Source: Candidatus Latescibacterota bacterium
Lineage (GTDB): Bacteria; Latescibacterota; UBA2968; UBA8231
NCBI GenBank assembly: GCA_965242865.1
Contig: CBDETK010000013.1
Coordinates: forward strand, 4,000,001 to 4,064,000
Direction of reading: 5' to 3'
Length of the DNA stretch: 64,000 nucleotides
The notes under the pieces are model-generated. The model was not told the DNA's origin. It worked only from the letters and a program-made list of their open reading frames with translations, and made no database searches. This document shows positions 8,291-64,000 of this stretch, in pieces (position 1 is the first letter of the stretch; the number at the start of each line of letters is the position of its first letter). The position numbers and the translations under genes were made by a program.

Positions 8291-8293
8291 GCC

Positions 8294-27404: not shown

Positions 27405-27442
27405 GATTTCCTCCTCGGGTGTCAGAATGTAGCACACCGCCA

Positions 27443-27482
27443 ACCTGAACAAAAAGATAGTGCATCAATGTTCAGGTGTCAA
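27443..27482 (-). promoter_or_regulatory. recA sigma70 promoter overlapped by a 9-bp inverted repeat (candidate operator)
   Basis: Minus strand TTGACA (27482-27477), 17 bp, TATCTT (27459-27454); ACCTGAACA (27443-51) and TGTTCAGGT (27469-77). Confidence 0.65.
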
Positions 27483-28387: not shown

Positions 28388-28465
28388 CCCGGTAAGCGAT
28401 TTTCACGTTCGTAATGCTGCTTTATGGCCAAATTAACCCACTATCAAAGGAGAAAAGAGAAAATC

Positions 28466-29497
28466 ATGTCAAAATCCCTCAAAACCCTGCTCGGGTTCGG
28501 CCTTTTGGGCTTCATCGGTGTTTGGATTGGCTGCTCGTCCGACTCCTCGCCAGTAGCCCCCCCCCATCCTGCTGGCAAAACCCACCTGACCTCGCAAGAC
28601 CCGACAGACCCGGCACCGACCTACGTTACGTTCGCCGACTCCAGTCTGGAGCGTGCGGTACGGACAGCACTAGGGGCCCAGGTGGGGGGGGACCCCACCA
28701 GCAGCTTGACGGACCCTACCGTGCCGCCCCTTAGAGTGACGGATCTGGCTACCCTGACCACGCTCAACGCGAGGAGTAGAGGCATTCAGAGCTTGGCGGG
28801 GCTTGAACATGCTACAAACTTGACCGCTCTGATGCTGGATAACAACAGCATTGCGGATATAAGCGACTTGGCCGGTTTGACCAAGTTGGAATATCTGAGT
28901 CTGATGGGCAACAGCATTGCGGGTATAGACTCTTTGGCCGATTTGCCCAAGTTGGAATATCTGTATCTGACGAGCAACAGCATTACGGATTTAAGCCCCT
29001 TGGCCGATTTGCCCAAGTTGAAACATCTGTATCTGACGAGCAACAGCATTACGGATTTAAGCCCCTTGGCCGGCCCCTTGGCCGATTTGCCCAAGTTGGA
29101 ATATCTGTATCTGGCGAGCAACAGCATTACGGATTTAAGCCCCTTGGCCAGTTTGACCAAGCTGAAAAGGTTGGCGCTAGGTGGGAATCCTTTTGGCGGG
29201 GATTTAAGCGACTTGGCCGGTTTGACCGAGTTGGAATGGTTAATGGTAAATTGGACCGGCGTTACGGATTTAAGCCCCTTGGAAGGCTTGACCAAGTTGA
29301 CATATCTGGACATAAGCAGTAACAGCGGGATTACGGATTTTAGCCCGTTGACATGCCTAGTGCCCACCTTGAAAAATCTGGCGCTTAGGGGTATGCCATT
29401 CTTTCAAATAGACGCGGCTGGGGGAAAAGTGCCTAAGCAGGACCAGACCGATCTCCTATACTTGGTAGCCAAAGGCGTCGCAATAAATTTCGAGTAA
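28466..29497 (+). CDS. Internalin-like leucine-rich repeat lipoprotein
   Basis: Lipobox WIGC, cap VTFADSSLERAVR, and 22-aa repeats LEYLYLTSNSITDLSPLADLPK. Confidence 0.88.
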   Translation: MSKSLKTLLGFGLLGFIGVWIGCSSDSSPVAPPHPAGKTHLTSQDPTDPAPTYVTFADSSLERAVRTALGAQVGGDPTSSLTDPTVPPLRVTDLATLTTLNARSRGIQSLAGLEHATNLTALMLDNNSIADISDLAGLTKLEYLSLMGNSIAGIDSLADLPKLEYLYLTSNSITDLSPLADLPKLKHLYLTSNSITDLSPLAGPLADLPKLEYLYLASNSITDLSPLASLTKLKRLALGGNPFGGDLSDLAGLTELEWLMVNWTGVTDLSPLEGLTKLTYLDISSNSGITDFSPLTCLVPTLKNLALRGMPFFQIDAAGGKVPKQDQTDLLYLVAKGVAINFE

Positions 29498-39128: not shown

Positions 39129-39259
39129 TTACTTTTACTTTATGCGCGGTTACGAGGATTGGGGCCACCAATTTTTGTAGCCGTTTTTTATTTCTCAACC
39201 TATGTCCGCGCCCTTCCTTTGCGTCCGCATTGGATGGAAGGCGGGTGTGGGGGAGACGT

Positions 39260-41452
<2,193 letters not shown>

Positions 41453-41680: not shown

Positions 41681-42355
41681 CTATGGATACAGCTGCTCTT
41701 TTACCACAGCCCAAGACAGCGGTAAAATAGTCGTTTTCAGGACGCGCTCGGGCGCTGTGCCCGCGTCCGGCCGCAAGTGCGTGGGAATGGATCCCGGGGT
41801 GCCCAGCTCGCGGGCGCCCGCGTCCCAGCCGCTTTGTTGGGTGGCTGTCGCCCAGCTTTCGGGCTGGTTGCCGGGCTGGTCAAAGGCAATGCGAACCATG
41901 GCGCTTTTGCTGGCCGAGTCGCCGGCGAAAGGAGCCCCCCGGCCATCGTCGGCCACGTCCACGAGTTGGCCACCGGCCTGCGGGTCCCCATCGTACAGAT
42001 GCAGGAGCAGCTTGGTGTTGGGCAGCGAAACAGCGGCGTCAACGCGCTGCGGTTCAACTGCGAGGAGGGATTTTTTGTGATCGGCCGCATAGTTGGCGAT
42101 GAGAAAGGTCTGCTTAGGGAGAATCGCAGCGGCTTCGAGGACGATCATCACCTTGTCCTCGTTGCCACTGCGGTAGGTTAGGGTCCAGCCGGCCAGGTCA
42201 ACCGGCGCGTCGCCGGGATTGTAGAGTTCGACCCACTCGTCGGCAGTTGATGCCGTACTACCCGGCCACATCAGTTCGGAGATGACGACCGGGCCGGGTT
42301 GGGCCGAGACAGCAGCCGCGAAAGCGAAAAAGACTAAGGAGATAAAGGGGCGCAT
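41681..42355 (-). CDS. Secreted lamin-tail domain protein with a SWxxVK tail
   Basis: VVISELMW, DEWVELYN, VDLAGWTL and GTPG; signal peptide. Confidence 0.8.
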   Translation of the reverse strand: MRPFISLVFFAFAAAVSAQPGPVVISELMWPGSTASTADEWVELYNPGDAPVDLAGWTLTYRSGNEDKVMIVLEAAAILPKQTFLIANYAADHKKSLLAVEPQRVDAAVSLPNTKLLLHLYDGDPQAGGQLVDVADDGRGAPFAGDSASKSAMVRIAFDQPGNQPESWATATQQSGWDAGARELGTPGSIPTHLRPDAGTAPERVLKTTILPLSWAVVKEQLYP

Positions 42356-42400
42356 GGCAGCCTCCAGGTTGGGGTGAGATGGCAATTACCATGCGCTTAA

Positions 42401-49308: not shown

Positions 49309-51003
49309 CTACCGAATACCCAACGCGATGAACGCTGGAAAACTCAATCCCATGTCCGCGGTGGTGAGGTCTTCGACGCCTGTGCCATCCAAGTTGGCCC
49401 GCTTTATCTTCTTAGTGCCCCCCCGGTCTGTCCAGTACATCTTTCCGAGTACCAAATCCAGCGCGATGCCCGTTGGATCAATCAATCCCATGTCCTCGGT
49501 GGTGAGGTCTCGGCGGCCTGTGCCATCTAAGTTGGCCCGCTGAATCCTATCCGTGCCAAATTCCGCCCAGTACATCTTTTCGTTCACCACATCCAGCGCG
49601 ATGGCCCCTGGATTCGTCAATGTGAGGTCTTGGGTGAGGTCTTGGACGTCTGTGCCATCTAAGTCGGCACGCTTTATCTTAGCCGGGGGTCCCCAGTCTG
49701 TCCAGTACATCTTTCTGTTCTCCACATCCAGCGCGATGCCAAATGGATTAATCAATCCCATGTCTGCGTTGGTGAGGTCTTGGACGCCTGTGCCATCTAA
49801 GTTGGCACACTTTATACTATCCGTGCCAGCGTCCACCCAGTACATCTTTCCGTTCTCCACGTCCAACGCGATGCCGTATGGCGTATTCAATCCCATGTCT
49901 GCGTTGGTGAGGTCTTCGGCGTCTGTGCCATCCAAGTTGGCCCGCTTAATTTTAGCCGATCCACTGACAGCGTGTGTCCAGTACATCTTTCTGCCCGCCA
50001 CATCCAGCGCGATGCCCGCTGGAAAATTCAATCCCATGTCTGGATTGGTGAGGTCTTCGACGCCTGTGCCATCCAAGTTGGCCCGCTTAATCGTATTATT
50101 GCCCCAGTCCGTCCAGTATAGGGTAGTCACTCGTACTGCGGGTGGTCCCGTCGGTTCCTCTAGTTCTGGTAGTTCTGGATAGACTTGGACGGTTTCGACG
50201 CGGGGGTATTTTTCTAGTACCGCTACGACGCGGAGGCCGCTTGTTATCGCGGCGGCGAGTTGTTGGTTGGCCGCATGCTGGCTGAGGGCGTTTTCCATCA
50301 CGCCCAGCCATTGCAGGTTGGTCAGGCTCGCCAAGGGACTGATATCCGCAATCGCGTTGTCTCCTAGCTGGAGAAATTGCAGGTTGGTTAGGCGAGCTAA
50401 CGGCTGCACATCGGTAATCGCGTTGCCCCACATATCCAGCTTGCGCAAGCGGATCAGGCTGGCCAGCGGACTCGCATCCGCCACCTTGTTCCCCCACAGC
50501 GACAGCGTGTGCAGATTGGTCAGACTGGCCAGCGGACTGACGTCGGTAATCTCGTTGCCCCGCAGATACAGCGTTGTCAGTGCTGTTGCGTATTCGAGGC
50601 CGGCCACGCTCTCAATGTCTTTATAGCTCGCGTCGAGTTCGGTCAGGGATGCCAAGTCCGCCGGGGTCAGTGCCCCTTGCGGGCGATCCAACGCCTCCCG
50701 CACCGCCTGCTCCAGATTGGCGTCGGCAAACTCCACGGTGGCCGATTGGGTGCTGTCGGCGTCAGCGTCAGCGTCGGTCTGGGTGCTATCGGCGTCGGTC
50801 TGGGTGGTGTCGGGGCTTTCGGGGGCGGGCAGCCCGTCGGTAGCGGTGTAGGTGTCGTCGCCCAAGAATTCGCATAGCGAACAGGTGGCTTTGCCGGCTG
50901 GCCGAGAGGCGACCGGCGCGGAGTCCGAGCAGCCCGTCCAAGCACTGACGACGCCCAAAAGGACGAACCCAAGCAGGGTTTTGAGAGATTTCAACGAAAG
51001 CAT
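49309..51003 (-). CDS. Lipoprotein with internalin-like LRRs and a YWTD (LDL-receptor class B) beta-propeller
   Basis: Lipobox WTGC, LRRs, then six repeats such as KMYWTD...KIKRANLDGTGVEDL...P.GIALD. Confidence 0.88.
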   Translation of the reverse strand: MLSLKSLKTLLGFVLLGVVSAWTGCSDSAPVASRPAGKATCSLCEFLGDDTYTATDGLPAPESPDTTQTDADSTQTDADADADSTQSATVEFADANLEQAVREALDRPQGALTPADLASLTELDASYKDIESVAGLEYATALTTLYLRGNEITDVSPLASLTNLHTLSLWGNKVADASPLASLIRLRKLDMWGNAITDVQPLARLTNLQFLQLGDNAIADISPLASLTNLQWLGVMENALSQHAANQQLAAAITSGLRVVAVLEKYPRVETVQVYPELPELEEPTGPPAVRVTTLYWTDWGNNTIKRANLDGTGVEDLTNPDMGLNFPAGIALDVAGRKMYWTHAVSGSAKIKRANLDGTDAEDLTNADMGLNTPYGIALDVENGKMYWVDAGTDSIKCANLDGTGVQDLTNADMGLINPFGIALDVENRKMYWTDWGPPAKIKRADLDGTDVQDLTQDLTLTNPGAIALDVVNEKMYWAEFGTDRIQRANLDGTGRRDLTTEDMGLIDPTGIALDLVLGKMYWTDRGGTKKIKRANLDGTGVEDLTTADMGLSFPAFIALGIR

Positions 51004-51667: not shown

Positions 51668-53638
51668 ATGCGTTCCTTCCATACGGCCAGCCCGATTAAG
51701 CCGGAACGAGCCGAGCCGGTCTTCAGCGTCAAAGCACTGGTGGGCGGCACCCTAGGGTCGCTGTGCATCGCCGTGGGTGCCCCATACGGCAACATGGTCA
51801 TCCGCGGCTCGTACATGTCCATTGATTTCAGCGCGGCGGGTGCTCTGTTCCTCTTCTTCCTGCTGACAGGCTTGGTCAACGCCTTGCTGACTCGCTTGGC
51901 CGCTCCCGTGGCCTTGGGCCGCTGCGAGCTCATCGTCGTGTACATCATGATGCTCGCGGCCTCGGCCATCCCCACGATGGGCCTCAGCGAGTACTGGCTG
52001 ACGATCATCACCGGCGCCCAGTACTACGCCACCCCGGAAAACGAGTGGGCCTTGCACATCCTGCCGCACCTGCCCGACTGGATCGCGCCGCAGAATCCCG
52101 AGGCGATCCAGTGGTTTTACGAAGGAGCACCGCGCACCGCTGGCATCCCTTGGGCGGTGTGGATCGGCCCGCTGTGCCATTGGGCCGTGCTGATCGCGGC
52201 ACTGTACTTGGTCATGATCTCGTCGATGGTCATTCTGCGCCGCCAGTGGGTGGAGCGAGAGCGGCTGGTCTATCCGCTGGTGCAAGTGCCCTTGGCCATG
52301 GTGGAGGGCAAAAGCCGCGGACAGGCCCTAGGGCCTTTCTTCAAAAACCCGATTCTCTGGATCGGATTTGCCCTGCCCGCCCTCGTCAGCAGCCTCAACG
52401 CCCTCCACGCGTACTTCAACTTCATCCCCGCCATCCCGCTCGTCGCCTCAGTGCCAGTCCTGCGCAACACCGTCAGCCTGATCTTCCGCCTGAGCTTTCC
52501 CATGGTCGGGTTCGCCTATCTAATCAACCTCGACATCGCCTTCAGCCTGTGGTTTTTCAACACCATCGCCAAGCTGATCCGAGGAGGGCTGGGGGTTTTA
52601 GGGGTCGGCAGCACCGAAAAGCTGGGCATTTACGGCGCACCGAGCGAGCCTATTCTCGCCCACCAAGGGCAGGGGGCGATGATCGTCTTGGTGCTCTTCG
52701 GCCTGTGGATTGGCCGCGAACACCTGCGCGACGTGCTCCGCAAGGCCCTCAAGGGCGACGACCGCATCGACGATAGCGGCGAGATGCTGTCCTATCGGGC
52801 CGCAGTTTTCACGTGGCTCGCCGGGGTGGCGGTGATGACGGTCTGGCTGTGGCAGTCCGGCTTGCCCCTGTGGGCGTCCTTTTTGACCCTGCTGTTGGCC
52901 CTTCTTATCTTCGTCGGCTTGACCCGAGTAGTCGTAGAAGGGGGCGTGGCCGCGGCGGTCGGGCCGATGATTTCTTCGTCGGCCTTAGTCTCGGCCGTTG
53001 GCTCTTCAGCGCTCGGGCCGGCCGGTATGGTGGGCCTTGCGTACACCTATGTATGGGCGGCGGACATCCGCACGTTTGTCATGGCTTCCTGCGCTCACGG
53101 ACTCAAGTTGGGCGAGGAGCTGGGGCCGCGGCTGCGGCCGCTTTTTTGGTACATGCTGCTGGCGATTTTTGTCAGCATCGTCGGCTCGGTCGCGGCGATT
53201 TTGTACCTCGCCTACGAATACGGCGGCATCAACCTCAACGGGTGGTTTTTTGGTGGTGGAACCCGCGCCCCTTTTGATTATATTACCACCAAGTTAAGTG
53301 CGCCCACCGAGCCGAATATAGACGGCTGGATTCACACGGTTGTCGGCGGGGGCATCATGGCCCTGCTCATGTGGGCGCGCCAGCAGCTCTTGTGGTGGCC
53401 CCTGCATCCCATCGGATACCCCATTGGTGCTGTATGGCTGATGGACCAATTGTGGTTTAGCATTGCCCTTGCTTGGCTCTTAAAGTTGGTGGCAATGAAA
53501 TACGGCGGCCCCGGCCTCTTTCGCCGGGCGCGGCCCTTCTTTTTGGGCCTAATCGTCGGTCAGTTTTTTATCGCCGGGCTTTGGTTGATTATCGACTTTT
53601 TTACCGGCATGACCGACAATGTGGTCTTCTGGATTTGA
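51668..53638 (+). CDS. Polytopic membrane protein of unknown function (DUF6785/DUF6784-like)
   Basis: Many TM helices; RRQWVERERLVYPL, WWPLHPIGY and K...YGG......PFFLGLI.G. Confidence 0.7.
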   Translation: MRSFHTASPIKPERAEPVFSVKALVGGTLGSLCIAVGAPYGNMVIRGSYMSIDFSAAGALFLFFLLTGLVNALLTRLAAPVALGRCELIVVYIMMLAASAIPTMGLSEYWLTIITGAQYYATPENEWALHILPHLPDWIAPQNPEAIQWFYEGAPRTAGIPWAVWIGPLCHWAVLIAALYLVMISSMVILRRQWVERERLVYPLVQVPLAMVEGKSRGQALGPFFKNPILWIGFALPALVSSLNALHAYFNFIPAIPLVASVPVLRNTVSLIFRLSFPMVGFAYLINLDIAFSLWFFNTIAKLIRGGLGVLGVGSTEKLGIYGAPSEPILAHQGQGAMIVLVLFGLWIGREHLRDVLRKALKGDDRIDDSGEMLSYRAAVFTWLAGVAVMTVWLWQSGLPLWASFLTLLLALLIFVGLTRVVVEGGVAAAVGPMISSSALVSAVGSSALGPAGMVGLAYTYVWAADIRTFVMASCAHGLKLGEELGPRLRPLFWYMLLAIFVSIVGSVAAILYLAYEYGGINLNGWFFGGGTRAPFDYITTKLSAPTEPNIDGWIHTVVGGGIMALLMWARQQLLWWPLHPIGYPIGAVWLMDQLWFSIALAWLLKLVAMKYGGPGLFRRARPFFLGLIVGQFFIAGLWLIIDFFTGMTDNVVFWI

Positions 53639-53654
53639 GAAAGGCACTACAATT

Positions 53655-56600
53655 ATGCCTAAGTTCGCGGTGAGGTGGATGGCCCTCGGCCTAATGTTGG
53701 CCAGCGCGGCCCCGGCTTGGACCGAGGTCGATTTTACCGAATTGGCGCGCACGACCCCAGTTGAGCGCGTGCAGCAGACGATGGACACTTTTGCTGGCTT
53801 GGGGTCTAGAGTGGCTGGCTATCGAGGGGCCGACCAAGCGGCCCAAATCGTGCAGGAACGCTTCCGCGCCATCGGCCTCGACGACGTCGCAGTCCACGAA
53901 TACGATGTCTCGATTCCCGTGGATAAGGGTGGGTTTTTGCAAGTCGTCGGCAGCGACCAACGAGTGCCCATCCACGGCCTCTGGCCCAACCTCGTCAAGA
54001 CCTCAACGCTGCCCGAAGGCGGGATGACCCAGCGCCTAATCGACGCCGGCGCCGGCGAGTACGCCGACATGGATGGCCAGCAAGTCGAAGGGGCCGTGGC
54101 CCTGATGGACTTCAATTCGGACGACGCTTGGCTCAATGCCGCGTACCTCGGGGCGCAGGCCATCGTCTTCATCGAGCCGGATTCCACCGTGTACTTGGAG
54201 GGCGAAAAGAAGTTTCTCACCATGCCGCTCGACCTGCCGCGGTTTTGGGTCAATCGCCAAGCCGGTCAGCTCTTGCGCCGCCAGTTGGCCACCGAGGGCG
54301 AGCAAACCCTGCACCTAGAGTACCGCATGGATTGGGAGCGGCGGCCCGCTTGGAACATCCTCGGCTCGATCCCCGGGTACGATCCTCTAATGAAAGAGGA
54401 CGTCATCGTGCTGGAGGCGTACTACGACGCCATGTCGGTCGTGCCGGCCCTCGCCCCGGGGGCCGAGCAGGCCTCCAGCATTACGGCGTTGTTGGAACTG
54501 GCGCGCTATTTCCGCGCCAACCCGCCGGCGCGCACCATCGTCTTTCTCGCCACTTCGGCCCACCACTTGGGCTTGCGCGGGGTCGATGATTTCATTCAGC
54601 GTTACCTACGCAAAGAGGACCCCTTTATCGAACACATGCTGGTCCGGCGGGTCGTCGATGCGGCCCTCGCGCAGGAGATGATCGCCCAAGACGGCATTCA
54701 CTACGCCATCGGCGAGGACAAATTCACCGGCAAGGAAGCCTTGGTGCGGGGCATTGCCGACGGGCGCACCAACTTGGCCGTGCGCGTTGCGGACGCCGCC
54801 CTCGCCGAAGGGCTGCTGGCCGAAGCCGAAGACCCGGCGCGCAGCTCGTGGGGCTTGTGGAAGAAGACCATAGAATGGGTCCGGAGGCTGCTGAGCCGCG
54901 AAGAAGGCTCCCTGCACCTCGCTGGCAAGCAATTCAAAGACCGCCATGAACTGGTCGAGCGGCTCGACGCGGACGACGACTTGCGCTTGGCCCTGTACAA
55001 GCGCTGGGCCGACCCCAAAATCGATTCGCTCGCGGTCAAGCTCTTTATCAGCCTCGACCTTTCGTCGCAGACCGACGAGCTCGGGGTGTGGAATAGCAAT
55101 ACCAGCTTTTACTACAAGCGTTACTTCGCGCCCTTCGGCAAAAACTTTATGGCCTATGCGCGCACGATCAGCCGCGAGCTGGGCTACCAGCAGCGCGATG
55201 TGCTGGTCAACGGCATCAGCCCCGAAGGCGGGATGAGCTGGCAGACCTTTGTCCCCGGCGAAATATCGGTCAACAGCGAATTGGTGTTGGCAACCGGCAC
55301 TCCGGCGTTGGCCTTTGTCACGGTCAACGACGCACGCTTCCTCGTCGATACGCCCCTAGACCGCGCCGAGCGCGTCAACCACGCCAATCTCGCCAAGCAG
55401 ATCCGGGTCTTGGCCGGCATGTTCGAGATGGCCTTTGAAGACCCCGAGCTGTTCCCAGACTTCAAGATGCGCCTGCGCGACAATCTGCGCTCGCTCCGCG
55501 GCCGGACCATGGTCTTTCCGCGCCGCAGCATCATCCCCGACCTGCCGCGGGCCGACGCCGTGGCCGTGGTGCGCAACGGCAAGAAAAAGTCGTATAAAGG
55601 CGTGCGCGGCGAGTACTACGAAGTCGTCGATGACAAGGGGGCCTTTTACGTCAATCGGGTGCGGGTCAACAACGTCCAGATCGAGGGCTACTACATGGAC
55701 CCGATCACCGGCCGCATCACCTACGCCCCGGACCGCGGTGTGCAAGGCGACGAGAGCTACCCCATGAAGGTCGCCATGGACTGGCGCGACAAGCAGTGGA
55801 TGGTCATTCTCTTCCCCTGCGTGCCTTACAACTTTTTCGACATCGTCGATCCGCGCTATCTCACCAAGCTGTCCAACGTGCAGGTCTTCGACGAGACTAA
55901 CAGCGCCCCGGTAGAATACGGTTACACCATTGGCGAAGGCCCCTCGGCCCAAAACGAGCCGGTCGGCGTGCTCTTTGCGCGGCCCGGCTCGCGCATCAAG
56001 ATGGGATTCGGCGCCGGCCTGCTCGGCTTCCGCTCGCTCCTGCTCAACGCCACCAGCGTAACCGACAAGGAAAAAGCCGAGGGCGAGGGCTTTGAGATTC
56101 GCCCCGGCACCTCCTTTGCCCGCACGACCTTCCAAGCTGCCCAAGACATGTGGAACCTCGACGAGTCGCGGATGCGCGAGTTGCGGAGCTTTGCCATTGA
56201 GAACCAGCGCCTCAACGACCTCCACTATCGGGCCGAAACCGAGTTGGACCAAGCGGCCGCGGCCGGCGCCGAGCAGCGCTGGGGCGATTTCGTGCGCCAC
56301 ACGCGCGCGGCCTTCGGCCTAGAATCGCGCGCCTATCCAGACGTCAAATCCACCCAAAACGACGTCATTCAGGGCATCATTTTCTTCATGGCCCTGGTCA
56401 TTCCCTGCGCCTTTTTCACCGAGCGGCTCCTGTTTACGGCCGCCACCATCCGCAATCAGATCATCGGGTTTGTCGGGGTTTTTGTCGCGATCTGGAGTGT
56501 GTTGTGGATGGTGCATCCGGCCTTTCAGTTGTCCAATCCCTTCGTCATTCTGCTCGCTTTTGTCATCATCGCGCTGGCCGTGCTCGTGATGTCGATCATC

Positions 56601-58481
56601 TCCGGCCGCTTCAACGAGCAGATGAAAAAGCTCCGCACCGAGGTGGCCGTGATCCACGACACGGACGTCAGCCGCTCTTCGGCCTCGCTAACGGCTTTCC
56701 AGCTCGGGATTTCCAACATGAAGCGGCGCAAGACGCGCACGGTCCTCACCTTTACCACGCTCTTGCTGCTGACCTTTACCGTCCTCTCCTTCACCTCCAT
56801 CCGCACGGGCCTGCGGTTCAATCAAATCAGCCGCGACAACGAGGGCCTCTACGAGGGCATCCTAATCCGCAGCAAGGCGTGGAACCCAATGGAGGATTCA
56901 GTCCTCGAATACGCGCGCAGCAATTTCGGCGATCGGGCCGCGGTCGCGCCGCGCAGTTGGTACAGCAACAAGGCCAAGGCGCACATCAAAATAAAAGCCG
57001 GGGAAAAAGCCCATAACGCGCTCGGCGTCTTGGGGTTGACCCCGGAGGAAACCGAGGTCACCGGGCTAGACCAAGCCCTCGTGGCCGGGCGGTGGTTCGC
57101 GCCGGGCGAGGACAAGGTCTGCATCCTGCCCATCGACATGGTCAAGGAGGCCCATCTCGACATTGATCTCGCCGAGGTCGGCCAAGCGCAGGTCCGCATC
57201 TTCGGCGACTTGTTCACGGTCGTTGGCGTCCTCGACTCCAAGCGGATGAAGGACCTCAAAGACCTCGACGACGAAATCCTGACCCCGGCCGACTTTGCCG
57301 TCACCGGCGGCCAAGCCGTGCAGGAAATCGCCGAGGAAGAAAAGCGCGAGAAGCAGGGCTTGGAGGACGCCAAGGTCGTCATCAAGCCCTTTGTCCATCT
57401 GGAGCCGGCCAACATCCTCATCGTGCCCTACCACACGCTGCGCAACGTCGGCAGCGGCAACCCCTTGCAGTCTGTGGCCGTGCGCTTTCCGGCCGGCAGC
57501 GATGTGCGCGGCGAGGTCGAGGAATTTCTCTCGCGCCTCGCGGTGACCCTGTTTGCTGGCATCAAGGAGCCCGGCGACGAATACATCAAGGTGGCGATTT
57601 ACTCATCGCTGGGGCTGACCTCCTTTTCCGGCATGAGCAACTTGTTCATTCCCATGCTGATTGCCTCGCTCATTGTGCTCAACACCATGATGGGCAGCGT
57701 GTACGAGCGCTTCCGCGAAATTGGCATCTACTCTTCGGTGGGCCTCGCCCCCGGCCATATCTCTTGGCTGTTTATCGCCGAGAGTTGCGTCTATTCGGTA
57801 TTGGGCGTCGTCGCCGGGTATCTCAGCGGCCAAGTGATCGCCAAGGTGCTCATCGAGTTCGACCTGCTGGGGGGCTTCACCCTCAACTACTCTTCCGTGG
57901 CCGCGGTGCTCTCCTGTATGCTGGTGATGGCCGTGGTCATGCTCTCGACGATTTACCCGGCGCGCAAGGCTTCGCAAATGGCCGTGCCGGACGTGACCCG
58001 CAAGTGGAAGCTGCCGCCGCCCGACGGCGACCAGTGGGATTTTGAGTTCCCCTTTACGGTGAGCGGCCACGAGGTTTTGGGCTTGAGCGTATTCCTCATC
58101 GGCTACTTTGATTCCTACAGCGAAGAGTCCATCGGCACCTTCTACACCGACGGCGCCCGACTACGCCGCGAAGAGACGCCCAACGGCGAAGGGTATCTCA
58201 TCGACATGAACATCTGGCTGGCTCCCTTCGACTTGGGCGTCAGCCAACACGTCACCGTGCGGGCCCTGCCCGAGGACGAGCACAACATCTACTCCGTCGG
58301 TCTGCAAATCAAGCGACTCAGCGGCGAGGACGCGTCGTGGCGTCGGGTCAACCAGCGCTTTATGAACGTCATCCGCAAACAGTTCCTTATATGGCGCACG
58401 GTGGATACCGAGGCCAAGGAAGGCTACCGCCAACAGGGCGCGGAAATTCTGCAAGGGCTGCGCAGCGAAGTGTCGGCGTAG
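53655..58481 (+). CDS. Large exported M28-peptidase-like / FtsX-MacB permease fusion
   Basis: Signal peptide, PA-like insert, M28-like AYYD...APGAEQASS...LELAR, TM block, N..RRK.RT.LT and FtsX-like VYERFREIGIYSSVGL. Confidence 0.8.
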   Translation: MPKFAVRWMALGLMLASAAPAWTEVDFTELARTTPVERVQQTMDTFAGLGSRVAGYRGADQAAQIVQERFRAIGLDDVAVHEYDVSIPVDKGGFLQVVGSDQRVPIHGLWPNLVKTSTLPEGGMTQRLIDAGAGEYADMDGQQVEGAVALMDFNSDDAWLNAAYLGAQAIVFIEPDSTVYLEGEKKFLTMPLDLPRFWVNRQAGQLLRRQLATEGEQTLHLEYRMDWERRPAWNILGSIPGYDPLMKEDVIVLEAYYDAMSVVPALAPGAEQASSITALLELARYFRANPPARTIVFLATSAHHLGLRGVDDFIQRYLRKEDPFIEHMLVRRVVDAALAQEMIAQDGIHYAIGEDKFTGKEALVRGIADGRTNLAVRVADAALAEGLLAEAEDPARSSWGLWKKTIEWVRRLLSREEGSLHLAGKQFKDRHELVERLDADDDLRLALYKRWADPKIDSLAVKLFISLDLSSQTDELGVWNSNTSFYYKRYFAPFGKNFMAYARTISRELGYQQRDVLVNGISPEGGMSWQTFVPGEISVNSELVLATGTPALAFVTVNDARFLVDTPLDRAERVNHANLAKQIRVLAGMFEMAFEDPELFPDFKMRLRDNLRSLRGRTMVFPRRSIIPDLPRADAVAVVRNGKKKSYKGVRGEYYEVVDDKGAFYVNRVRVNNVQIEGYYMDPITGRITYAPDRGVQGDESYPMKVAMDWRDKQWMVILFPCVPYNFFDIVDPRYLTKLSNVQVFDETNSAPVEYGYTIGEGPSAQNEPVGVLFARPGSRIKMGFGAGLLGFRSLLLNATSVTDKEKAEGEGFEIRPGTSFARTTFQAAQDMWNLDESRMRELRSFAIENQRLNDLHYRAETELDQAAAAGAEQRWGDFVRHTRAAFGLESRAYPDVKSTQNDVIQGIIFFMALVIPCAFFTERLLFTAATIRNQIIGFVGVFVAIWSVLWMVHPAFQLSNPFVILLAFVIIALAVLVMSIISGRFNEQMKKLRTEVAVIHDTDVSRSSASLTAFQLGISNMKRRKTRTVLTFTTLLLLTFTVLSFTSIRTGLRFNQISRDNEGLYEGILIRSKAWNPMEDSVLEYARSNFGDRAAVAPRSWYSNKAKAHIKIKAGEKAHNALGVLGLTPEETEVTGLDQALVAGRWFAPGEDKVCILPIDMVKEAHLDIDLAEVGQAQVRIFGDLFTVVGVLDSKRMKDLKDLDDEILTPADFAVTGGQAVQEIAEEEKREKQGLEDAKVVIKPFVHLEPANILIVPYHTLRNVGSGNPLQSVAVRFPAGSDVRGEVEEFLSRLAVTLFAGIKEPGDEYIKVAIYSSLGLTSFSGMSNLFIPMLIASLIVLNTMMGSVYERFREIGIYSSVGLAPGHISWLFIAESCVYSVLGVVAGYLSGQVIAKVLIEFDLLGGFTLNYSSVAAVLSCMLVMAVVMLSTIYPARKASQMAVPDVTRKWKLPPPDGDQWDFEFPFTVSGHEVLGLSVFLIGYFDSYSEESIGTFYTDGARLRREETPNGEGYLIDMNIWLAPFDLGVSQHVTVRALPEDEHNIYSVGLQIKRLSGEDASWRRVNQRFMNVIRKQFLIWRTVDTEAKEGYRQQGAEILQGLRSEVSA

Positions 58482-58737
58482 GTGCAGCCCAAGTAGATAG
58501 CCTAGCTGCCCGGCGGTAGCGGGTTTCTCTACAGCTCCATTTCCAGATCAACGGCTGCATGACAGCATCGGCCGACGCTCGTCGTGTGGTTCGTCCAGTT
58601 CCTTCTTTCTATGCTCAAATAGTGTGCTGAGGGGGATGCCGTCGGAGGCGCGTCCCGAACAATCGAGCGATACGCCGGGGTCTGGGGACATCCCCCGAAC
58701 TTGTGGGGCGCGTGGCAGACGCGGTGGAGGACACAAA

Positions 58738-59568
58738 ATGTGGACGTATCGAGTGATCATCATTGCGTTGTTCGCCCTATTGCGGATGGGGGATGCGTAT
58801 GCGGAAACGGAGCCAAAAGAAATCACGATTCACATCCGTGGAGAGTACAACAAGGCGGTGATTCCGGCTCTGTTGGCGGCGGCTGACGCGAAGACGACGA
58901 GGACCGGGATCGCCGAGTTGGATTCTCTTGCAGCCACTTATGGCCTGATGGGGATATATCACAAGTCTGGCTTTTATGGGTATCAGTTTCGGCTGACGTT
59001 TCCGCCGGGTGCGGATGGGGCCGCCATTGCCGGAGCTTATAGGAACGTATCCTATATACAGGCGGTCGTCGGAGAGGCCGAGAAACTCCCGGTTCTTTTA
59101 GATCATCGTACAGCGAATGGTCTCCGTTCTTTTACCATGGAAAACCCGAGATTCCGGTTGCTCGCAAAGGTGGGTGCTGGAACGGCTTCGGGAATCATTG
59201 TTACAGCCATGGCCGCTAGTGCTATAGCAAACGCGGATAACTTTATGGGAGGTCATATTTTAGCGGGATCAGTCTTCGGCTGTAGTGTCGGATTCCCGTT
59301 GGGTGTGAGCATGGTTGATCATTATGATTCTTTACTCATTACCCTACTCGGTGGTGTCATACCGCTATCGGCCGGCGCTTACTTAGTAGGACACGAGATC
59401 GAAAGTATTAGGGTACTAGGGGCAACGGCTATATTTGTCGGCCCTATTATTGGTTCGCTCTATGCTTCGGAGAAATGGCGCCAGCTTCCTCAAGCCCGCC
59501 GCGTCTCCTTCGCGTTATCCCCTACCCTCAACGGCGGCCTTTCTGCCGTAGCCCAACTGCGCTTTTGA
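58738..59568 (+). CDS. Array gene 1: signal + module A (subtilase-prodomain-like) + Gly-rich TM core + constant C-terminus
   Basis: GGAGG RBS; ends WRQLPQARRVSFALSPTLNGGLSAVAQLRF. Confidence 0.75.
   Translation: MWTYRVIIIALFALLRMGDAYAETEPKEITIHIRGEYNKAVIPALLAAADAKTTRTGIAELDSLAATYGLMGIYHKSGFYGYQFRLTFPPGADGAAIAGAYRNVSYIQAVVGEAEKLPVLLDHRTANGLRSFTMENPRFRLLAKVGAGTASGIIVTAMAASAIANADNFMGGHILAGSVFGCSVGFPLGVSMVDHYDSLLITLLGGVIPLSAGAYLVGHEIESIRVLGATAIFVGPIIGSLYASEKWRQLPQARRVSFALSPTLNGGLSAVAQLRF
58807..59060 (+). repeat. Module A DNA repeat (second copy ~61268-61524)
   Basis: Long identical tracts, e.g. GGGATCGCCGAGTTGGATTCTCTTGCAGCCACTTATGG and GTTTCGGCTGACGTTTCCGCCGGGTGCGGATGGGGCCGCCATTGCCGGAG. Confidence 0.9.
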
Positions 59569-59589
59569 CCTTGCAACAAGAGAAAGGCT
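59475..59589 (+). repeat. 115-bp near-identical direct repeat (copy 2 at 60164-60278; diverged copies at ~62694-62809 and ~61880-61969)
   Basis: One mismatch between copies 1 and 2; spans the last ~30 codons, the stop and the next RBS. Confidence 0.92.
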
Positions 59590-59594
59590 CCCCG

Positions 59595-60257
59595 ATGCCC
59601 ATTGCCATTGTGCTCACTGTGCTCACATTGCTCATCGGCATGGTCTCGCCCCTTTTCGCCAACTCCCCAGCGCAGTCTCCCTACTGGACGGGTCGGCTCG
59701 AACAGGACGCGACGTGGCGCGACACGGTGTCTGTCGGCGGCGATGTGACGATTGCAGCCGCGGCGACGGTGGCTAGCGACAGTGTGCAGATGGATACTGG
59801 CCGCGCCATTGGTGGATCCAGAGAGAATCCAGATGGTCTTGGGCCGAGATTGGGGAGAACTGCCCGAAAGTTGATTTTCGGTACTCTTGGAGGCATTGCT
59901 TTAGGGATTGTGGTGGGTGCCAGTGCCAGTGGAGGCTACAGCGGTGACGCTATCGGTGGATATAACAGTGCATTGGCAGGCTTCTTTTTGGGATATGGAG
60001 CCGGAACGGTGCTTAGCGTGTACTTAAGCGATCGACAGGCTCGTTTTAGCGGGGTACTGGCTGGCGGTACGGTGGGGATATGGGTAGGTGCTAAGACGAT
60101 AAGTAAGACCGAAGTGCCCATGTTAATCTGTCCTGTTGCCTTTGCGACAATTGCGTCTGAACTATGGCGCCAGCTTCCTCAAGCCCGCCGCGTCTCCTTC
60201 GCGTTATCCCCTACCCTCAACGGCGGCCTTTCCGCCGTAGCCCAACTGCGCTTTTGA
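59595..60257 (+). CDS. Array gene 2: signal + truncated module B + Gly-rich TM core + constant C-terminus
   Basis: MPIAIV...PYWTGRLEQDATWRDTVSVGGDVTIAA; C-terminus identical to gene 1. Confidence 0.75.
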   Translation: MPIAIVLTVLTLLIGMVSPLFANSPAQSPYWTGRLEQDATWRDTVSVGGDVTIAAAATVASDSVQMDTGRAIGGSRENPDGLGPRLGRTARKLIFGTLGGIALGIVVGASASGGYSGDAIGGYNSALAGFFLGYGAGTVLSVYLSDRQARFSGVLAGGTVGIWVGAKTISKTEVPMLICPVAFATIASELWRQLPQARRVSFALSPTLNGGLSAVAQLRF

Positions 60258-60299
60258 CCTTGCAACAAGAGAAAGGCTTGAAACAGAAAGGACTGTGAG

Positions 60300-60983
60300 A
60301 TGCGCTTTATTTTGCTGGTCTTATGGCTACTGCTCGCCCTTTGGGAGCCAGTGGCGGCTCGGACGATTCGGGTCTCAGAAAAGGAATCAGAACACGGGCA
60401 CTTGGCCTTGTTTTGGGCTCTGATAGAGGCGGCTCCGCACGATACGTTGCTCGTCGCTGCCGGGGATTATGAGGGGGGTCGCATCGATAAACCCCTGACG
60501 CTCATTGGGGCCGGAGCCGATAGCACTAGAGTGGTAAGTTGCGGCGGCGGGGGATTCGGGATAGGAGCCGAAGGGGTAACCATTGAAGGATTTTATATAC
60601 AGAGCCACTTTGATAAATGTCGTGGGGCGAGAGCTATTGTGTGTAATAATTGTTCTGCGACACTCAAGCACAACATTCTCGAAGGGTGTTACTCGGCGAT
60701 TACCACCCTTGATAATGCTCGACTAACCGTCAACTACAACCAACTAATAGGCAACTTCGCCTTTGAGATTTTCCTCTCTGACCCTCCGAGCACTATTGAC
60801 GCTCGCTTCAACTGGTGGGGGACGACGGTTGAACAGGAGATACAGGCCAAGATAGCCGCGACGATGGACCAGGTGGTGTTGGTGTATCGGCCTTGGCTGC
60901 GAGGTCCCGAGGAAATCTTCCGTGATTTCCCTACCTTTATATCCCTGCTCAGTTGGGGTCAATTGAAACAGAAAGGACGATGA
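60300..60983 (+). CDS. Secreted right-handed beta-helix (pectin-lyase-like) protein with a SWGQLK tail
   Basis: A.PHDTLLVAAG.Y...IDKPLTLIGAG, VTIEGFYI and IDARFNWWG. Confidence 0.75.
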   Translation: MRFILLVLWLLLALWEPVAARTIRVSEKESEHGHLALFWALIEAAPHDTLLVAAGDYEGGRIDKPLTLIGAGADSTRVVSCGGGGFGIGAEGVTIEGFYIQSHFDKCRGARAIVCNNCSATLKHNILEGCYSAITTLDNARLTVNYNQLIGNFAFEIFLSDPPSTIDARFNWWGTTVEQEIQAKIAATMDQVVLVYRPWLRGPEEIFRDFPTFISLLSWGQLKQKGR

Positions 60984-60984
60984 C

Positions 60985-61122
60985 ATGCGCTTGGTCCTCC
61001 TGCTCTTTCTGTTGGGAGTCGGCTTTGCGGCCAGCGACGCCACCGAGGCGGGCTACGTTACGGGTCTAATTGTCGTCTTTTATATGTTCTCTGGGGTCTT
61101 TCTGGGTGTTCCAGGAATGTAG
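60985..61122 (+). pseudogene. Relic: signal peptide + first codons of module B
   Basis: MRLVLLLFLLGVGFAASDATEAGYVTG; CTACGTTACGGGTC (61053-66) is identical to 63553-66. Confidence 0.5.
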
Positions 61123-61204
61123 CTTATCCTGAGCTCGGCACCAAGGTTTGTCGGCTGTCGCCATGCTGTGCTTTTAATCCCTCAATAACGGGAGGATACG
61201 CTTT

Positions 61205-61969
61205 ATGCCGCTTATGATCGTTGCTACCCTGTTCGCCATACTCATGGTAGAGGGGGCAGAAGCAGAGACGGAGCCAAAAGAAATCACGATCCGCATCCGT
61301 GGCGAGCACAAAGCGGTGATTTCGGGTCTGTTGGCGGCTGTTGACGAGGGGACGACGGTTACGGGGATCGCCGAGTTGGATTCTCTTGCAGCCACTTATG
61401 GTCTGATAGAGTATGGTACGGGTCGATCCTCTGTCTTTTATGGGTATCGGTTTCGGCTGACGTTTCCGCCGGGTGCGGATGGGGCCGCCATTGCCGGAGA
61501 TTATGGGAACGTACCCTATATACAATTGGTTCGTCAACGCGCCAATTTGGGTAAGCGAGTTACGGGTAAGTTACTCGTTGGCACTCTTACTGGTAGCGTT
61601 GTCCTTGTGGGGGTGGGTGTTCCTCTGAGAACATTGACTTCTGATAGCGTCGCTACCATCGCTTGGGTTGGCTATCCGATTGGAGTGGGGCTCGGGACCA
61701 GTTTATTGGATAGACACGATTATTATCGATCCTTGGTATTTTCAATAGGTGGCAGCTTCTTAGGGGCTGGGATTGGCCTTGCACTAATCCCCATAGATCC
61801 ATGGAGGAATCCCATCAGTGCCGTTGGGCTCATTATGATCATGCAGTCTATCACGGCCACGTTGGTGTCCGAGTTGTTTCGCAAGCCCCCAGAGTCTGAC
61901 CGCTTCTCGGTAGGTCTGGTGCCAGACATCGGAGGGAACTGGTCGGCCGTAGCTACCCTGCGGTTTTGA
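61205..61969 (+). CDS. Array gene 3: signal + module A + Gly-rich TM core + diverged constant C-terminus
   Basis: ETEPKEITIRIRGE...; ends SELFRKPPESDRFSVGLVPDIGGNWSAVATLRF. Confidence 0.78.
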   Translation: MPLMIVATLFAILMVEGAEAETEPKEITIRIRGEHKAVISGLLAAVDEGTTVTGIAELDSLAATYGLIEYGTGRSSVFYGYRFRLTFPPGADGAAIAGDYGNVPYIQLVRQRANLGKRVTGKLLVGTLTGSVVLVGVGVPLRTLTSDSVATIAWVGYPIGVGLGTSLLDRHDYYRSLVFSIGGSFLGAGIGLALIPIDPWRNPISAVGLIMIMQSITATLVSELFRKPPESDRFSVGLVPDIGGNWSAVATLRF

Positions 61970-62026
61970 ACCGAGCCGCAAGATAGGCTCTAAACACCTA
62001 ACTGTTGGAAAGTCAACGTCTCACGG

Positions 62027-62788
62027 ATGGAGAGTACAAAGATAAAATATAGCCGACACACATGGCACTCTATCCAATATCGGCGGTATCGAGTGCTGTG
62101 GTTTGTCTTGATCCTGCTGGGAATTGGCTCTGCGGCCGAGGCCAGTGCTCCGGTTCCCTCGCGGTCCTACTGGACGGGTCGGATCAAACAGGCCACCACG
62201 TGGCGCGACACGGTGTATGTCGGCGGCGACGCGACCAAGCGGGGTGGGCGCGTCATGGTGGACTCGACTGGTGATTCAGGAAGCGGCGCGATGTCGGATA
62301 GTCTTGCGGAGAGTAAGAGTAATATGAGTACTGGTAAGCGAGTTGCTCTCAAGTTAATCGCTGGTACTCTTGGGGGAGTGGTAGGATTCGCGATGGTCAT
62401 CTCCAGCTTACCTTGCTTTCCCGACGACTATCCAGACGGTTACGATCCCATCTTTTGTAAATCAGCAGAAGCAGCTCTTCGATACGGCTATCCGGTCGGA
62501 ATTGCTATTGGTGTCAGTTTGGTTGGTCCACGCGACCGCCCTATCACATCCTTCATCAGGCCCCTAGTCCTATCCCTAGGCGGCAGTGCAGTAGGATTAA
62601 TCGGAGGTATTTGGTTGACAAATGTTGATAGCGAGGTGTTCTGGCCATCCATCCCTGTCTTTCCTATCGTCGGTGCGACGCTGGCGTCTGAACTATGGTG
62701 CCAGCCTCCTCAAGACCGCCGCTTCTTTTTCTTTTTAGCTCCCACCCTCAACGGCGGCCTCTCCGCCGTTACCACGTTACGCTTTTGA
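62027..62788 (+). CDS. Array gene 4: signal + internally deleted module B + Gly-rich TM core + constant C-terminus
   Basis: YWTGRIKQATTWRDTVYVGGDATKRGG; ends LAPTLNGGLSAVTTLRF. Start uncertain. Confidence 0.72.
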   Translation: MESTKIKYSRHTWHSIQYRRYRVLWFVLILLGIGSAAEASAPVPSRSYWTGRIKQATTWRDTVYVGGDATKRGGRVMVDSTGDSGSGAMSDSLAESKSNMSTGKRVALKLIAGTLGGVVGFAMVISSLPCFPDDYPDGYDPIFCKSAEAALRYGYPVGIAIGVSLVGPRDRPITSFIRPLVLSLGGSAVGLIGGIWLTNVDSEVFWPSIPVFPIVGATLASELWCQPPQDRRFFFFLAPTLNGGLSAVTTLRF

Positions 62789-62814
62789 CCCTTCAATGAG
62801 AGAAAGACTCCCCT

Positions 62815-63450
62815 ATGCCCATTTTGATCGCGGTAATCGCGTCGTCTTTGGCTTTCGTTCTGATGATTTTTTCGCTGAGTTCCACAAGTAATTCATCGTT
62901 GTCGCGGTCGAAGCAGCCATGTCTTTGGCCGCGTTGTGTCGTACTCAGTCTTCTTATGACGGTAGCTGCTCTTTGGGCTGGCTGTGGAAATGAAAAAGTC
63001 ACCGCACTAAGAGACGGGGCGATTGTTGTAATGGGGGCGATCAGAGATAAGGAGACCTTGGAACCGCTGAACAAGACTCTTGTGGGAGTCGTGTACTCGG
63101 GAATACCAGATAGTGTACTCATCGACTCATCGGCATTTTTGATTGTAACGCCTGAGCAGAAAGAAACCGGACGTCATCCACAAACCGCCTTGTGGACAAT
63201 TGAACAACCTCTGGTCCTCAACTATGAAGTTATGGAGTTTTTCACGGAAACCAGCGAGAACGGACTTTTTGAAATATATGAGTTTCCAAGTACCTGCGGC
63301 TCACACTATGACTGCGCTATAGAGCGTATCAGCAGATTGGTTGCTTGGAGGTCCGGCTACAGGTTATGGAAATACGACGTCCGGCGTGATACGGTCTCGA
63401 ATAATACCCCTCTTAATGTCTCTATTTACATGGAAAAAATCGAGAACTAA
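62815..63450 (+). CDS. Hypothetical lipoprotein-like protein
   Basis: Internal lipobox LWAGC. The MPI start derives from the array junction, so the true start may be downstream. Confidence 0.55.
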   Translation: MPILIAVIASSLAFVLMIFSLSSTSNSSLSRSKQPCLWPRCVVLSLLMTVAALWAGCGNEKVTALRDGAIVVMGAIRDKETLEPLNKTLVGVVYSGIPDSVLIDSSAFLIVTPEQKETGRHPQTALWTIEQPLVLNYEVMEFFTETSENGLFEIYEFPSTCGSHYDCAIERISRLVAWRSGYRLWKYDVRRDTVSNNTPLNVSIYMEKIEN

Positions 63451-63469
63451 CGCGATGGAAGTACACACC

Positions 63470-64000
63470 ATGAAGAGATCATTCGTTTCCACGGCCTTGT
63501 TGCTCCTCGGCATGGCCTCGCCTCTTTTCGCCAGTTCCCCAGCGCAGCAACCCTACGTTACGGGTCGGCTCGAACAGGCCACCACGTGGCGCGACACGGT
63601 GTATGTCGGCGGCGACGTGACGATTGCAGCGGGAGCGACGCTGACGCTGGACCCCAACACGCAGGTTTTCTTTCTGCCCTACCGCGATGAGACCCGAGGC
63701 GGCTTGGACACCACCCGTGCGGAACTGATCGTCAAGGGGCGACTGCATGCCCACGCCGGCGGCATCGTCTTTCGTTCCGCGGATGCGGCTTCGTTGGGAG
63801 CCGATTGGTATGGCCTCGTCGTCGAGCGGGGCGGGCGAGCCGATGTATCCTACGCTGCGATTCGCGATGGGCTGCGTTGCGTGTATGCCAAGCGGGGTGG
63901 GTTCGTCAGGATGGACGCTGTCGCCTTTGCCAACTGCGGAAAGCCGACCGCGCCAGCGGGTAGGGACAGTACGCTGACCGCAGGGGGCGTTGAGTTGGTG
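63470..64000 (+). CDS. Array gene with full-length module B (G8/beta-helix-like); runs off the window
   Basis: Read manually: MKRSFVSTALLLLGMASPLFASSPAQQPYVTGRLEQATTWRDTVYVGGDVTIAAGATLTLDPNTQVFF...ELIVKGRL...IVFRS...WYGL; no stop before 64000. Confidence 0.78.
   Translation, partial: MKRSFVSTALLLLGMASPLFASSPAQQPYVTGRLEQATTWRDTVYVGGDVTIAAGATLTLDPNTQVFFLPYRDETRGGLDTTRAELIVKGRLHAHAGGIVFRSADAASLGADWYGLVVERGGRADVSYAAIRDGLRCVYAKRGGFVRMDAVAFANCGKPTAPAGRDSTLTAGGVELV

Follow-up and report, generated by a model that had tools for sequence, protein, structure and literature searches.

What kind of proteins is encoded by a row of genes that keep the same 3′ end and exchange their 5′ parts, and which process exchanges them? 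These questions are raised by the last part of a 64,000-nt stretch of a Candidatus Latescibacterota genome (GenBank assembly GCA_965242865.1, contig CBDETK010000013.1, positions 4,000,001–4,064,000), which is called the window here at its full length. On the 3′ side of position 58481, the ORF list of the window contains seven open reading frames (ORFs) on the plus strand, separated by spacers of 19–82 nt. It is judged somewhat better than an even chance that this array encodes lineage-specific membrane-anchored, domain-displaying envelope proteins, whose diversity comes from unequal crossing-over and in-frame deletion as well as from ordinary homologous recombination.

Based on the alignment, genes 1, 2, 4, and 5 share the C-terminal tail SE(L/K)(W/F)(R/C)...P..(N/G)G(G/N)(L/W)SAV..LRF, directly followed by the stop codon. 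The most divergent of the four C-termini is that of gene 4 (61205). At the N-terminal side, module A is common to genes 1 and 4, and module B is common to genes 2, 5, and 7. The signal peptides were judged by eye as hydrophobic N-termini with AxA-type sites, and none of the four complete proteins has a Cys where cleavage is predicted. These facts agree with the sequence-only reading of this DNA, which described a shared LRF terminus in at least four tandem genes, and the N-terminal modules that it listed are seen as DNA repeats (D2–D6). The same reading called the gene at 63470 truncated. This gene does start with module B, but the module is full-length and the gene is merely cut by the end of the window; by homology, its C-domain should be encoded beyond 64000. 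Likewise, the supposed variable Gly-rich core is strongly divergent at the DNA level, as claimed (for genes 1 and 4, see below), but it is one homologous domain with 21–50% identity in the measured pairs and with a conserved predicted fold.

Relatives at the genome level were found by a scan that relied on one narrow peptide pattern. Five of the eight matching stretches encode relatives, and these are located in three loci (L001, L002, and L003), all three titled Candidatus Latescibacterota. L001 is syntenic with the window: the flank is 94.6% identical over 4.1 kb. The available part of gene 7 shows 79% amino acid (aa) identity to the N-terminal part of L001 8648–9997.

Signal peptide, ectodomain, membrane core, and tail have had separate histories within these tandem paralogs. 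Between genes 1 and 4, the synonymous divergence (dS) of module A is 0.22; that of the helical cores is 3.0, which is saturated, at 21% identity. The last 30 residues of genes 1 and 2 are all identical (30/30; dS 0.04), and the cores of the same two genes are deeply different. In comparison with its positional orthologue in L001, gene 1 is a mosaic, with dS of 0.19 in module A, 0.23 in the tail, and 0.48 in the helices (nonsynonymous divergence, dN, of 0.41), and with a saturated linker. The backbone gene compared with its L001 orthologue gives dS of 0.21 and dN/dS of 0.07. The C-terminal tail is under purifying selection (dN/dS 0.14), and parts of the array genes show dN/dS of 0.5–0.85.

Chimeric combinations are seen among protein relatives. 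P0001 carries the signal peptide of gene 7 (23/23 residues) on the body of gene 2 (187/188). P0002 corresponds to gene 2 with an undeleted module B, and its tail differs, with 12/28 identical residues versus 120/137 just upstream. Because P0002 carries the full module B, gene 2 is short of ~134 residues in frame. P0004 combines the signal peptide of the relic in the array with the core of gene 5 (134/140) and a gene 1-type tail (29/30, versus 22/30 to gene 5). The deletions in module B of gene 5 were recognized by comparison with P0004, P0009, P0013, and P0014. The core type of gene 4 is found with module A, full module B, short module B, or other N-terminal parts, and that of gene 5 with module A, with module B in its short or full form, or without any recognized module.

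The order of members also differs between strains. The L001 array contains six members in another order, four of which are A-type, one B+A+C, and one short-B+A+C (C being the C-domain), in addition to the orthologue of gene 3. Between two of these members, L001 has an unrelated 180-aa ORF (10163–10705) with a weak GapR-like match (expectation value, E, of 0.003), which is not seen in the window. L003 has two adjacent members, and of the two members in L002 one is intact and the other frameshifted; neither locus is beside a gene for an M28 peptidase-FtsX fusion, such as the one that precedes the array in the window. The frameshift splits an A-type member of L002 (9947–10640) into module A (9947–10315) and the C-domain (10248–10640), and this copy is either a pseudogene or the product of a sequencing error. 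With different module histories, chimeric alleles, and the same core found with different N-modules and tails, the recombination-driven combinatorial diversification proposed in the sequence-only reading is upheld. It had looked to cassette order and content in relatives for such differences, and the syntenic L001 differs in both.

The conserved DNA blocks lie where such exchanges would take place. The 3′ block extends ~35 nt beyond the stop codons, across the Shine-Dalgarno-like stretch AGAGAAAGG, and into the next start. When the four tails of the window are aligned with the six tails of L001, the mean column identity is 75%, and the conservation continues through TGA, AGAGAAAGG, and the next start codon. 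An end-piece of module B in gene 5 (D10, 62235–62263) matches 63888–63916. Conserved blocks at the module borders, running through the stop codon and the next ribosome-binding site, had been described, and the repeat blocks and the alignment of ten tails confirm them.

The base composition sets the array apart, as had also been claimed. The array genes have a GC content of 0.47–0.58 and a third-position GC content (GC3) of 0.51–0.58, compared with 0.62 and 0.83 for the adjacent M28-FtsX gene. Gene 6 has the lowest GC content of the array (0.47). Gene 7, with its full module B, is intermediate and near the backbone (GC 0.64, GC3 0.73). The region 58738–63450 is thus a compositional island, and its cause may be foreign origin, relaxed selection, or low expression.

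The C-domain belongs to a sizeable family. Pfam and NCBIfam gave only noise at E ≤ 1 for genes 1, 2, 4, 5, and 7. With gene 2 as a query, 75 protein matches were obtained. Gene 5 compared with all cluster representatives (clustered at 50% identity) matched at least 228 at the threshold of E ≤ 1e-3, of which 69 remained at E ≤ 1e-10, and in nearly all hits listed for it the match reaches the last residue of the protein. Of 8000 candidates scored with a profile, 293 clusters matched at E ≤ 1e-5. The final residue is F in 279 of 300 stored proteins, and 248 of the 300 end with RF. The members are ~125–494 aa long; longer fusions (484–2000 aa) were searched for and none was found, which is weak evidence. 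A source name is given for just 2 of the 120 rows listed, both "hypothetical protein", one from a Latescibacteria metagenome-assembled genome (MAG) and the other from a Gemmatimonadota MAG. The family appears to be lineage-specific with a narrow range; it was seen in Latescibacterota genomes and many metagenome contigs.

The N-terminal parts of 138 representatives mostly have no Pfam match. Three have adhesion-type domains above the Pfam cut-off (fn3, fn3 plus cadherin, and leucine-rich repeats, LRR, respectively), and one more shows Big_9/cadherin under the cut-off. No Pfam Gly-zipper family matches the window genes or the 138 representatives. In a profile search of PDB sequences, nothing was under E of 0.7, pyocin S5 being at 2.6. 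PADLOC, plasmid tblastn, and phage tblastn gave no match, and Rfam gave none on 58000–64000. The Atlas feature neighbours are only unnamed clusters dominated by Myxococcota (0.89–0.91), and in one of them (score 0.89) 18% of the members have Gly-zipper_YMGG, which is a lead only. No description of the C-domain family was found in the literature. The remark that no named system with this architecture is known is supported, in that no named family matches.

The fold of the C-domain was predicted with AlphaFold2 for gene 1 (39 sequences) and for the paralog L001 8648–9997 (B+A+C, 449 aa; 96 sequences). The gene 1 model has an N-terminal hydrophobic helix, module A as an alpha/beta domain at residues 27–112 (predicted local distance difference test, pLDDT, ~80–94), and a disordered linker. 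Four helices follow at 137–166, 172–193, 199–217, and 222–246 (pLDDT of 77–94 in 10-residue blocks), and then a hairpin with strands 257–262 and 268–273 (53–71). In the paralog, module B is predicted as all-beta with short strands and module A again as alpha/beta. Its four helices lie within 299–419 (block pLDDT mostly 90–97, one block 71), and its hairpin at 430–446 (71–85). In the family alignment, R140, K144, G148, G185, S244, E245, R255, L260, P262, S269, A270, and F276 are invariant, and G152, G181, G189, V190, D194, and D197 are at least 90% conserved. The glycines are spaced at i+4, so that helix 1 contains GxxxG and helix 2 contains GxxxGxxxG. The Kyte-Doolittle means of the helices are 1.5–2.0 per 19-residue window. 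For neither model did a Foldseek search of PDB return a match at E < 1e-3. Both models resemble a membrane bundle of four helices that is capped by a small amphipathic beta element. As both are helical with a single hairpin, the C-terminus is not predicted to be a beta-barrel, and the barrel or pore of the sequence-only reading finds no counterpart in the two runs (four helices with pLDDT ~90). A homo-oligomer prediction of four copies of the C-domain (residues 133–276) scored 0.00, under the mark, and counts neither way.

From these observations, the following mechanism can be proposed. Each protein is composed of a Sec-type signal peptide, an exchangeable extracytoplasmic N-module, a low-complexity linker, and a C-domain of ~140 aa. 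The N-module is A (small alpha/beta), B (small beta-helix), both, or neither, and in relatives it can be fn3, cadherin, or LRR. The C-domain is predicted to span the membrane as a bundle of four helices with GxxxG/GxxxGxxxG glycine zippers; a basic stretch comes next, and an amphipathic hairpin ending with LRF-COOH closes the chain. As a membrane anchor, this domain would hold the variable N-module at the envelope or in the periplasm. The diversity would originate from in-frame deletions and from exchanges at three conserved DNA blocks, namely signal peptide/N-module, the C-domain start junction, and the 3′ tail plus the intergenic region; general homologous recombination, gene conversion, and unequal crossing-over would produce these exchanges. 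Recombination of this kind would act over evolutionary and population timescales without a dedicated switching device. Anchoring in the inner membrane is the most likely placement, favored because the helices are hydrophobic enough to stop transfer. Given the strongly conserved LRF hairpin and the inverted charge pattern described below, the C-domain may instead have a role in the outer membrane or in docking to a partner.

Other explanations of the array concern the process and the nature of its products. Programmed antigenic or phase variation, in which a dedicated mechanism rewrites one expressed locus at high frequency from neighboring donor cassettes, would account for variable segments flanked by conserved blocks, for chimeric alleles in other samples, and for recent gene conversion between neighbors. 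It is nevertheless very improbable here. None of the four complete copies is a silent cassette, because each has a start codon and a signal peptide; at the starts inspected, Shine-Dalgarno-like stretches are found ahead of genes 1 and 4 and inside the conserved 3′ block. The repeats are 73–95% identical and not exact, there are only three weak inverted repeats and no long one, and neither a homopolymer longer than 6 nt nor a meaningful tandem repeat is present as a slippage tract. Among the 34 ORFs of at least 150 aa scanned in the window (up to 64000), none encodes an integrase, recombinase, invertase, or reverse transcriptase, in line with the earlier remark that the window has no integrase. 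RecA is encoded at 26295–27452. A sigma-70 promoter scan gave 0 sites, which is uninformative for this phylum. The lack of switching machinery agrees with tandem paralogs that recombine in the ordinary homologous way rather than with a dedicated switch for cassettes. The outer-membrane or surface protein families Helicobacter Hop/Bab, Anaplasma msp2/p44, Ehrlichia OMP-1/P28, and Neisseria opa diversify by gene conversion at conserved ends. Like the array, they consist of tandem or dispersed paralogs that vary between strains, have mosaic alleles, and are conserved in blocks on the 5′ and 3′ sides, but they have another fold and hypervariable loops, whereas the array swaps or deletes whole domains and has no layout of expression site and silent cassettes. 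That the array is a mis-assembly of mixed strains, or a row of decaying junk genes, is hardly probable. The relics, the in-frame deletions, the frameshifted copy in L002, the low GC3, and dN/dS of 0.5–0.85 in parts of the genes would suit it. However, the copies are divergent, unlike exact repeats that were collapsed or duplicated, their reading frames are intact, the tail is under purifying selection, residues are conserved over hundreds of clusters, and comparable arrays are present in an independent complete chromosome. It is quite unlikely that the genes encode membrane-permeabilizing glycine-zipper toxins or bacteriocins, with a C-domain that kills or forms a pore and N-modules that target or bind receptors. 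Glycine-zipper helices are typical of several membrane-active toxins, reportedly including Caulobacter Cdz, Tde1, and an LXG toxin of S. suis, and the small size, signal peptides, multiple copies, and atypical GC3 also speak for this idea. The toxin would, however, be the constant part and not the variable part, no immunity-like gene is evident between the members (the non-family genes are only the beta-helix protein and the lipoprotein-like ORF), no secretion system adjoins, and the PADLOC, plasmid, phage, and PDB profile searches mentioned above found nothing significant. Polymorphic toxins (CDI and Rhs) resemble the array in their cassette-like arrangement, conserved recombination blocks, and relics. 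They differ in having a constant N-terminus and a variable C-terminus, immunity genes, and a delivery domain; the polarity of the array is reversed, and it contains neither an immunity gene nor a delivery domain. A programmed antigenic-variation or polymorphic-effector system, to which the sequence-only reading likened the array, finds no support here.

Two more explanations concern the membrane. The C-domain could be exported to the outer membrane, with the LRF hairpin as a signal of the type recognized by the beta-barrel assembly machinery (BAM), and serve there as an anchor or pore, built as a multi-subunit hairpin barrel or by SlyB-like zipper helices, with the N-module or the loops displayed at the surface. 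Hydrophobic and polar residues alternate in the terminal hairpin, which has the Phe end counted above in the stored members. The charge pattern is easier to reconcile with a domain inserted from the periplasm than with an inner-membrane topology, loops 1–2 and 3–4 are variable in length and sequence, the GxxxGxxxG zippers are conserved, the Atlas cluster with Gly-zipper_YMGG offers a lead, and a few relatives have adhesion-type N-domains. This explanation is still unlikely. The two AlphaFold2 runs give helices and not strands, each chain has one hairpin of 6-residue strands, there is no lipobox, and no match was found to Pfam families of outer-membrane proteins, autotransporters, or glycine-zipper proteins. 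Strongly hydrophobic helices, here with hydropathy of up to 2.0, are expected to be retained in the inner membrane. A BAM-dependent barrel has at least eight amphipathic transmembrane strands; two short strands are predicted here. Autotransporters (type Va and trimeric Vc) share with the array a Sec signal, a variable N-terminal passenger, a conserved C-terminal anchor, a C-terminal Phe, and multigene families, but they have a 12-stranded barrel or four strands per monomer in place of four predicted helices and one hairpin, and neither the Pfam autotransporter nor the YadA-anchor model matches. SlyB/Pcp and YfgH (Gly-zipper_Omp, Gly-zipper_YMGG, and Rick_17kDa_Anti) have similar GxxxG/GxxxGxxxG helices rich in Gly, Ala, and Ser, and the likeness in Atlas is weak. 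Proteins of the SlyB/Pcp type have a lipobox and a helical hairpin, whereas the array proteins have no lipobox, four helices, and an extra LRF hairpin. Another explanation, which is quite unlikely, is that the array proteins are accessory subunits or substrates of the adjacent membrane machine of M28-peptidase/MacB-FtsX type (1620 aa, 53619–58481). The array is directly downstream on the same strand in both the window and the syntenic L001, and FtsX chains head the Foldseek lists for both models. Yet these matches are weak (E of 1e-3 to 4e-2, TM-scores of 0.11–0.23, root-mean-square deviation >20 Angstrom), the members in L002 and L003 are not beside such a gene, and a terminator-like hairpin (58505–58520) follows the big gene. 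In order, the FtsX/MacB permeases also have a hydrophobic N-terminus, an alpha/beta extracytoplasmic domain, and a helical bundle, but no member of the family has an FtsX match in Pfam. An FtsX identity for the C-domain, to which the Foldseek lists led, is rejected in view of the low TM-scores and of hhalign against the FtsX region of the neighbor, which gave a probability of 0.2%.

Several points weigh against a membrane-anchored, domain-displaying protein that is diversified by recombination. The Lys and Arg residues per protein, counted in 195 members, are 2.5 in the N-flank, 2.65 at the start of helix 1, and 3.4 after helix 4, and only 0.2–0.3 in loops 1–2 and 3–4; the conserved acidic VDPYD loop between helices 2 and 3 is on the same side as the termini. 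If the N-module is exported, the charged face would be periplasmic, which breaks the positive-inside rule if the bundle follows a signal peptide and lies in the inner membrane. This face could be neutralized by the conserved acidic residues, or the domain could enter the membrane from the periplasmic side. Short representatives (e.g., P0125, P0185, and P0140) start at the C-domain without a signal peptide; they may be fragments, and if they are complete, the opposite orientation would be implied. A simple anchor role leaves the conserved LRF hairpin unexplained, and the fold and topology are predictions throughout. Recognizable adhesion-type domains are above the cut-off in only 3 of 138 representatives. 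The taxonomic range is thinly sampled, with one relative labelled as a Gemmatimonadota MAG. The relics and the frameshifted copy in L002, as well as the GC3 of the array far under that of the backbone, fit weakly expressed or decaying genes.

It can also be speculated, as an unlikely though not negligible idea, that the C-domain is an unrecognized anchor or sorting module of the envelope, inserted in the outer membrane or docked to a partner via its free C-terminus. Host-associated Latescibacterota would then use it as a universal socket for swappable surface domains, including eukaryote-like fn3, cadherin, and LRR, and the arrays would keep generating new surface combinations. The known sorting signals LPXTG, PEP-CTERM, GlyGly-CTERM, and the C-terminal domain (CTD) of the type IX secretion system (T9SS) are likewise one C-terminal element on many exported domains per lineage. 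They consist of a short motif, a single helix, and a basic tail (or a beta-sandwich CTD); here, the element has 140 aa, four helices, and ~20 structured residues past the basic cluster. No sortase-like gene was seen among the scanned ORFs of the window, and no sorting-signal model of NCBIfam or Pfam matched.

Table 1. Genes and DNA repeat blocks of the array, in window positions.
Feature	Position	Strand	Description
Gene 1	58738–59568	+	276 aa: signal peptide, module A (alpha/beta), linker, putative C-terminal anchor domain ending LRF
Gene 2	59595–60257	+	220 aa: signal peptide, module B cut down by in-frame deletion, C-domain
Gene 3	60300–60983	+	227 aa: exported NosD-like right-handed beta-helix protein, non-member inside the array
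Relic	60985–61122	+	45-codon ORF: module B-type signal peptide joined to an unrelated tail
Gene 4	61205–61969	+	254 aa: signal peptide, module A, divergent C-domain, tail ...PDIGGNWSAVATLRF
Gene 5	62027–62788	+	253 aa: signal peptide, module B with two deletions, C-domain
Gene 6	62815–63450	+	211-aa ORF, non-member; possibly a lipoprotein (LWAGC)
Gene 7	63470–64000, runs off the window end	+	Signal peptide and full-length module B (all-beta, beta-helix-like)
3′ tail, stop and intergenic block (D1)	59436–59603; copies 60125–60292, 62656–62823	+	168 nt, 73–79% identical
Module B 5′ block (D2, D3)	59628–59771; copies 63500–63643 (86%), 62166–62235	+	Range 86–91%
Module A DNA blocks (D4–D6)	58754–59060; copies 61215–61524	+	73–95% identical
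Junction block, C-domain start, GKRV..KL..GTL (D8, D9)	61550–61588; copies 62333–62376, 59861–59893	+	Short, 73–79%

No further copy of the family was found in bases 1–58000 of the window. Gene 3 matches Pfam Beta_helix with E of 3.8e-4 and 20.6 bits, which does not reach the cut-off of 25.9, and an NCBIfam NosD subfamily with E of 8e-9 and 34.5 bits, far under the cut-off of 300. Its orthologue in L001 (7972–8646) has 80% aa identity. The end of gene 3 (60936–60983) is ...SWGQLKQKGR, that of the L001 orthologue (8599–8646) is SWGRLKQKGR, and the lamin-tail protein at 41681–42385 ends with ...LSWAVVKEQLYP. This may be a C-terminal motif shared by exported proteins of the lineage. For gene 6, the sole library match in Pfam and NCBIfam is a weak one to a YgdI/YgdR lipoprotein (E of 0.05), and no match is present in L001–L003. 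The first 29 and last 16 residues encoded by the relic match the ends of the 135-aa relative P0053, so that the relic is a deletion derivative of a P0053-like relative. It is represented in the DNA repeat D7 and matches the start of the L001 gene at 8648. Relics between the genes had been noticed in the earlier reading.

Upstream of the array, in 51668–58481, the gene for a membrane protein of 656 aa (DUF6785/DUF6784) shares 20 nt with the start of the gene for the fusion protein (M28 peptidase, MacB periplasmic core, FtsX permease), and the pair looks like an operon. The fusion protein is 97% identical in L001. In L003, the two members are followed downstream (11062–16764; labels by eye) by two unknown ORFs and by genes for a TolC-like outer-membrane protein and a 797-aa RND/MMPL-like transporter. 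Defense-type genes of the window are a HEPN (RiboL-PSP) gene with a GmrSD-like gene (3899–5643) and a gene for an SNF2/PLD helicase-nuclease of 1120 aa beside one for an Eco57I/MmeI-type methyltransferase of 1139 aa (10416–17335). A gene set for an oligopeptide ABC transporter lies between the two groups (6332–10376). The rest of the window is ordinary chromosome, with recA, radA, prfA, rho, dnaG, relA/spoT, and a gene of the Mur-ligase family.

The window also encodes eukaryote-like repeat proteins: LRR (28424–29497), FG-GAP/ASPIC (39230–41452), lamin-tail (41681–42385), and LRR with LDL-receptor class B (49309–51003). Two of them have lipoprotein-like N-termini (…GCS). Eukaryote-like proteins have been reported in sponge-associated Latescibacterota, and the C-domain family is not mentioned in the available text of that report (PMC12993501). 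Because the window encodes repeat proteins of the reported kind, a role of the array proteins at the interface with a host or neighbors is plausible.

Recombining arrays of envelope paralogs with conserved ends are of an already known kind, while the anchor domain and the shuffling of whole domains are undescribed in the searchable literature. The C-domain adds a sizeable protein domain family for which there is no curated model, and its arrays are a clear bacterial example of domain shuffling. The combination of helices with an end resembling a beta-signal raises the question of how the anchor inserts. Surface exposure of the modules is plausible, and if the N-modules face outside, the family would be a candidate for interaction with a host or with neighbors.

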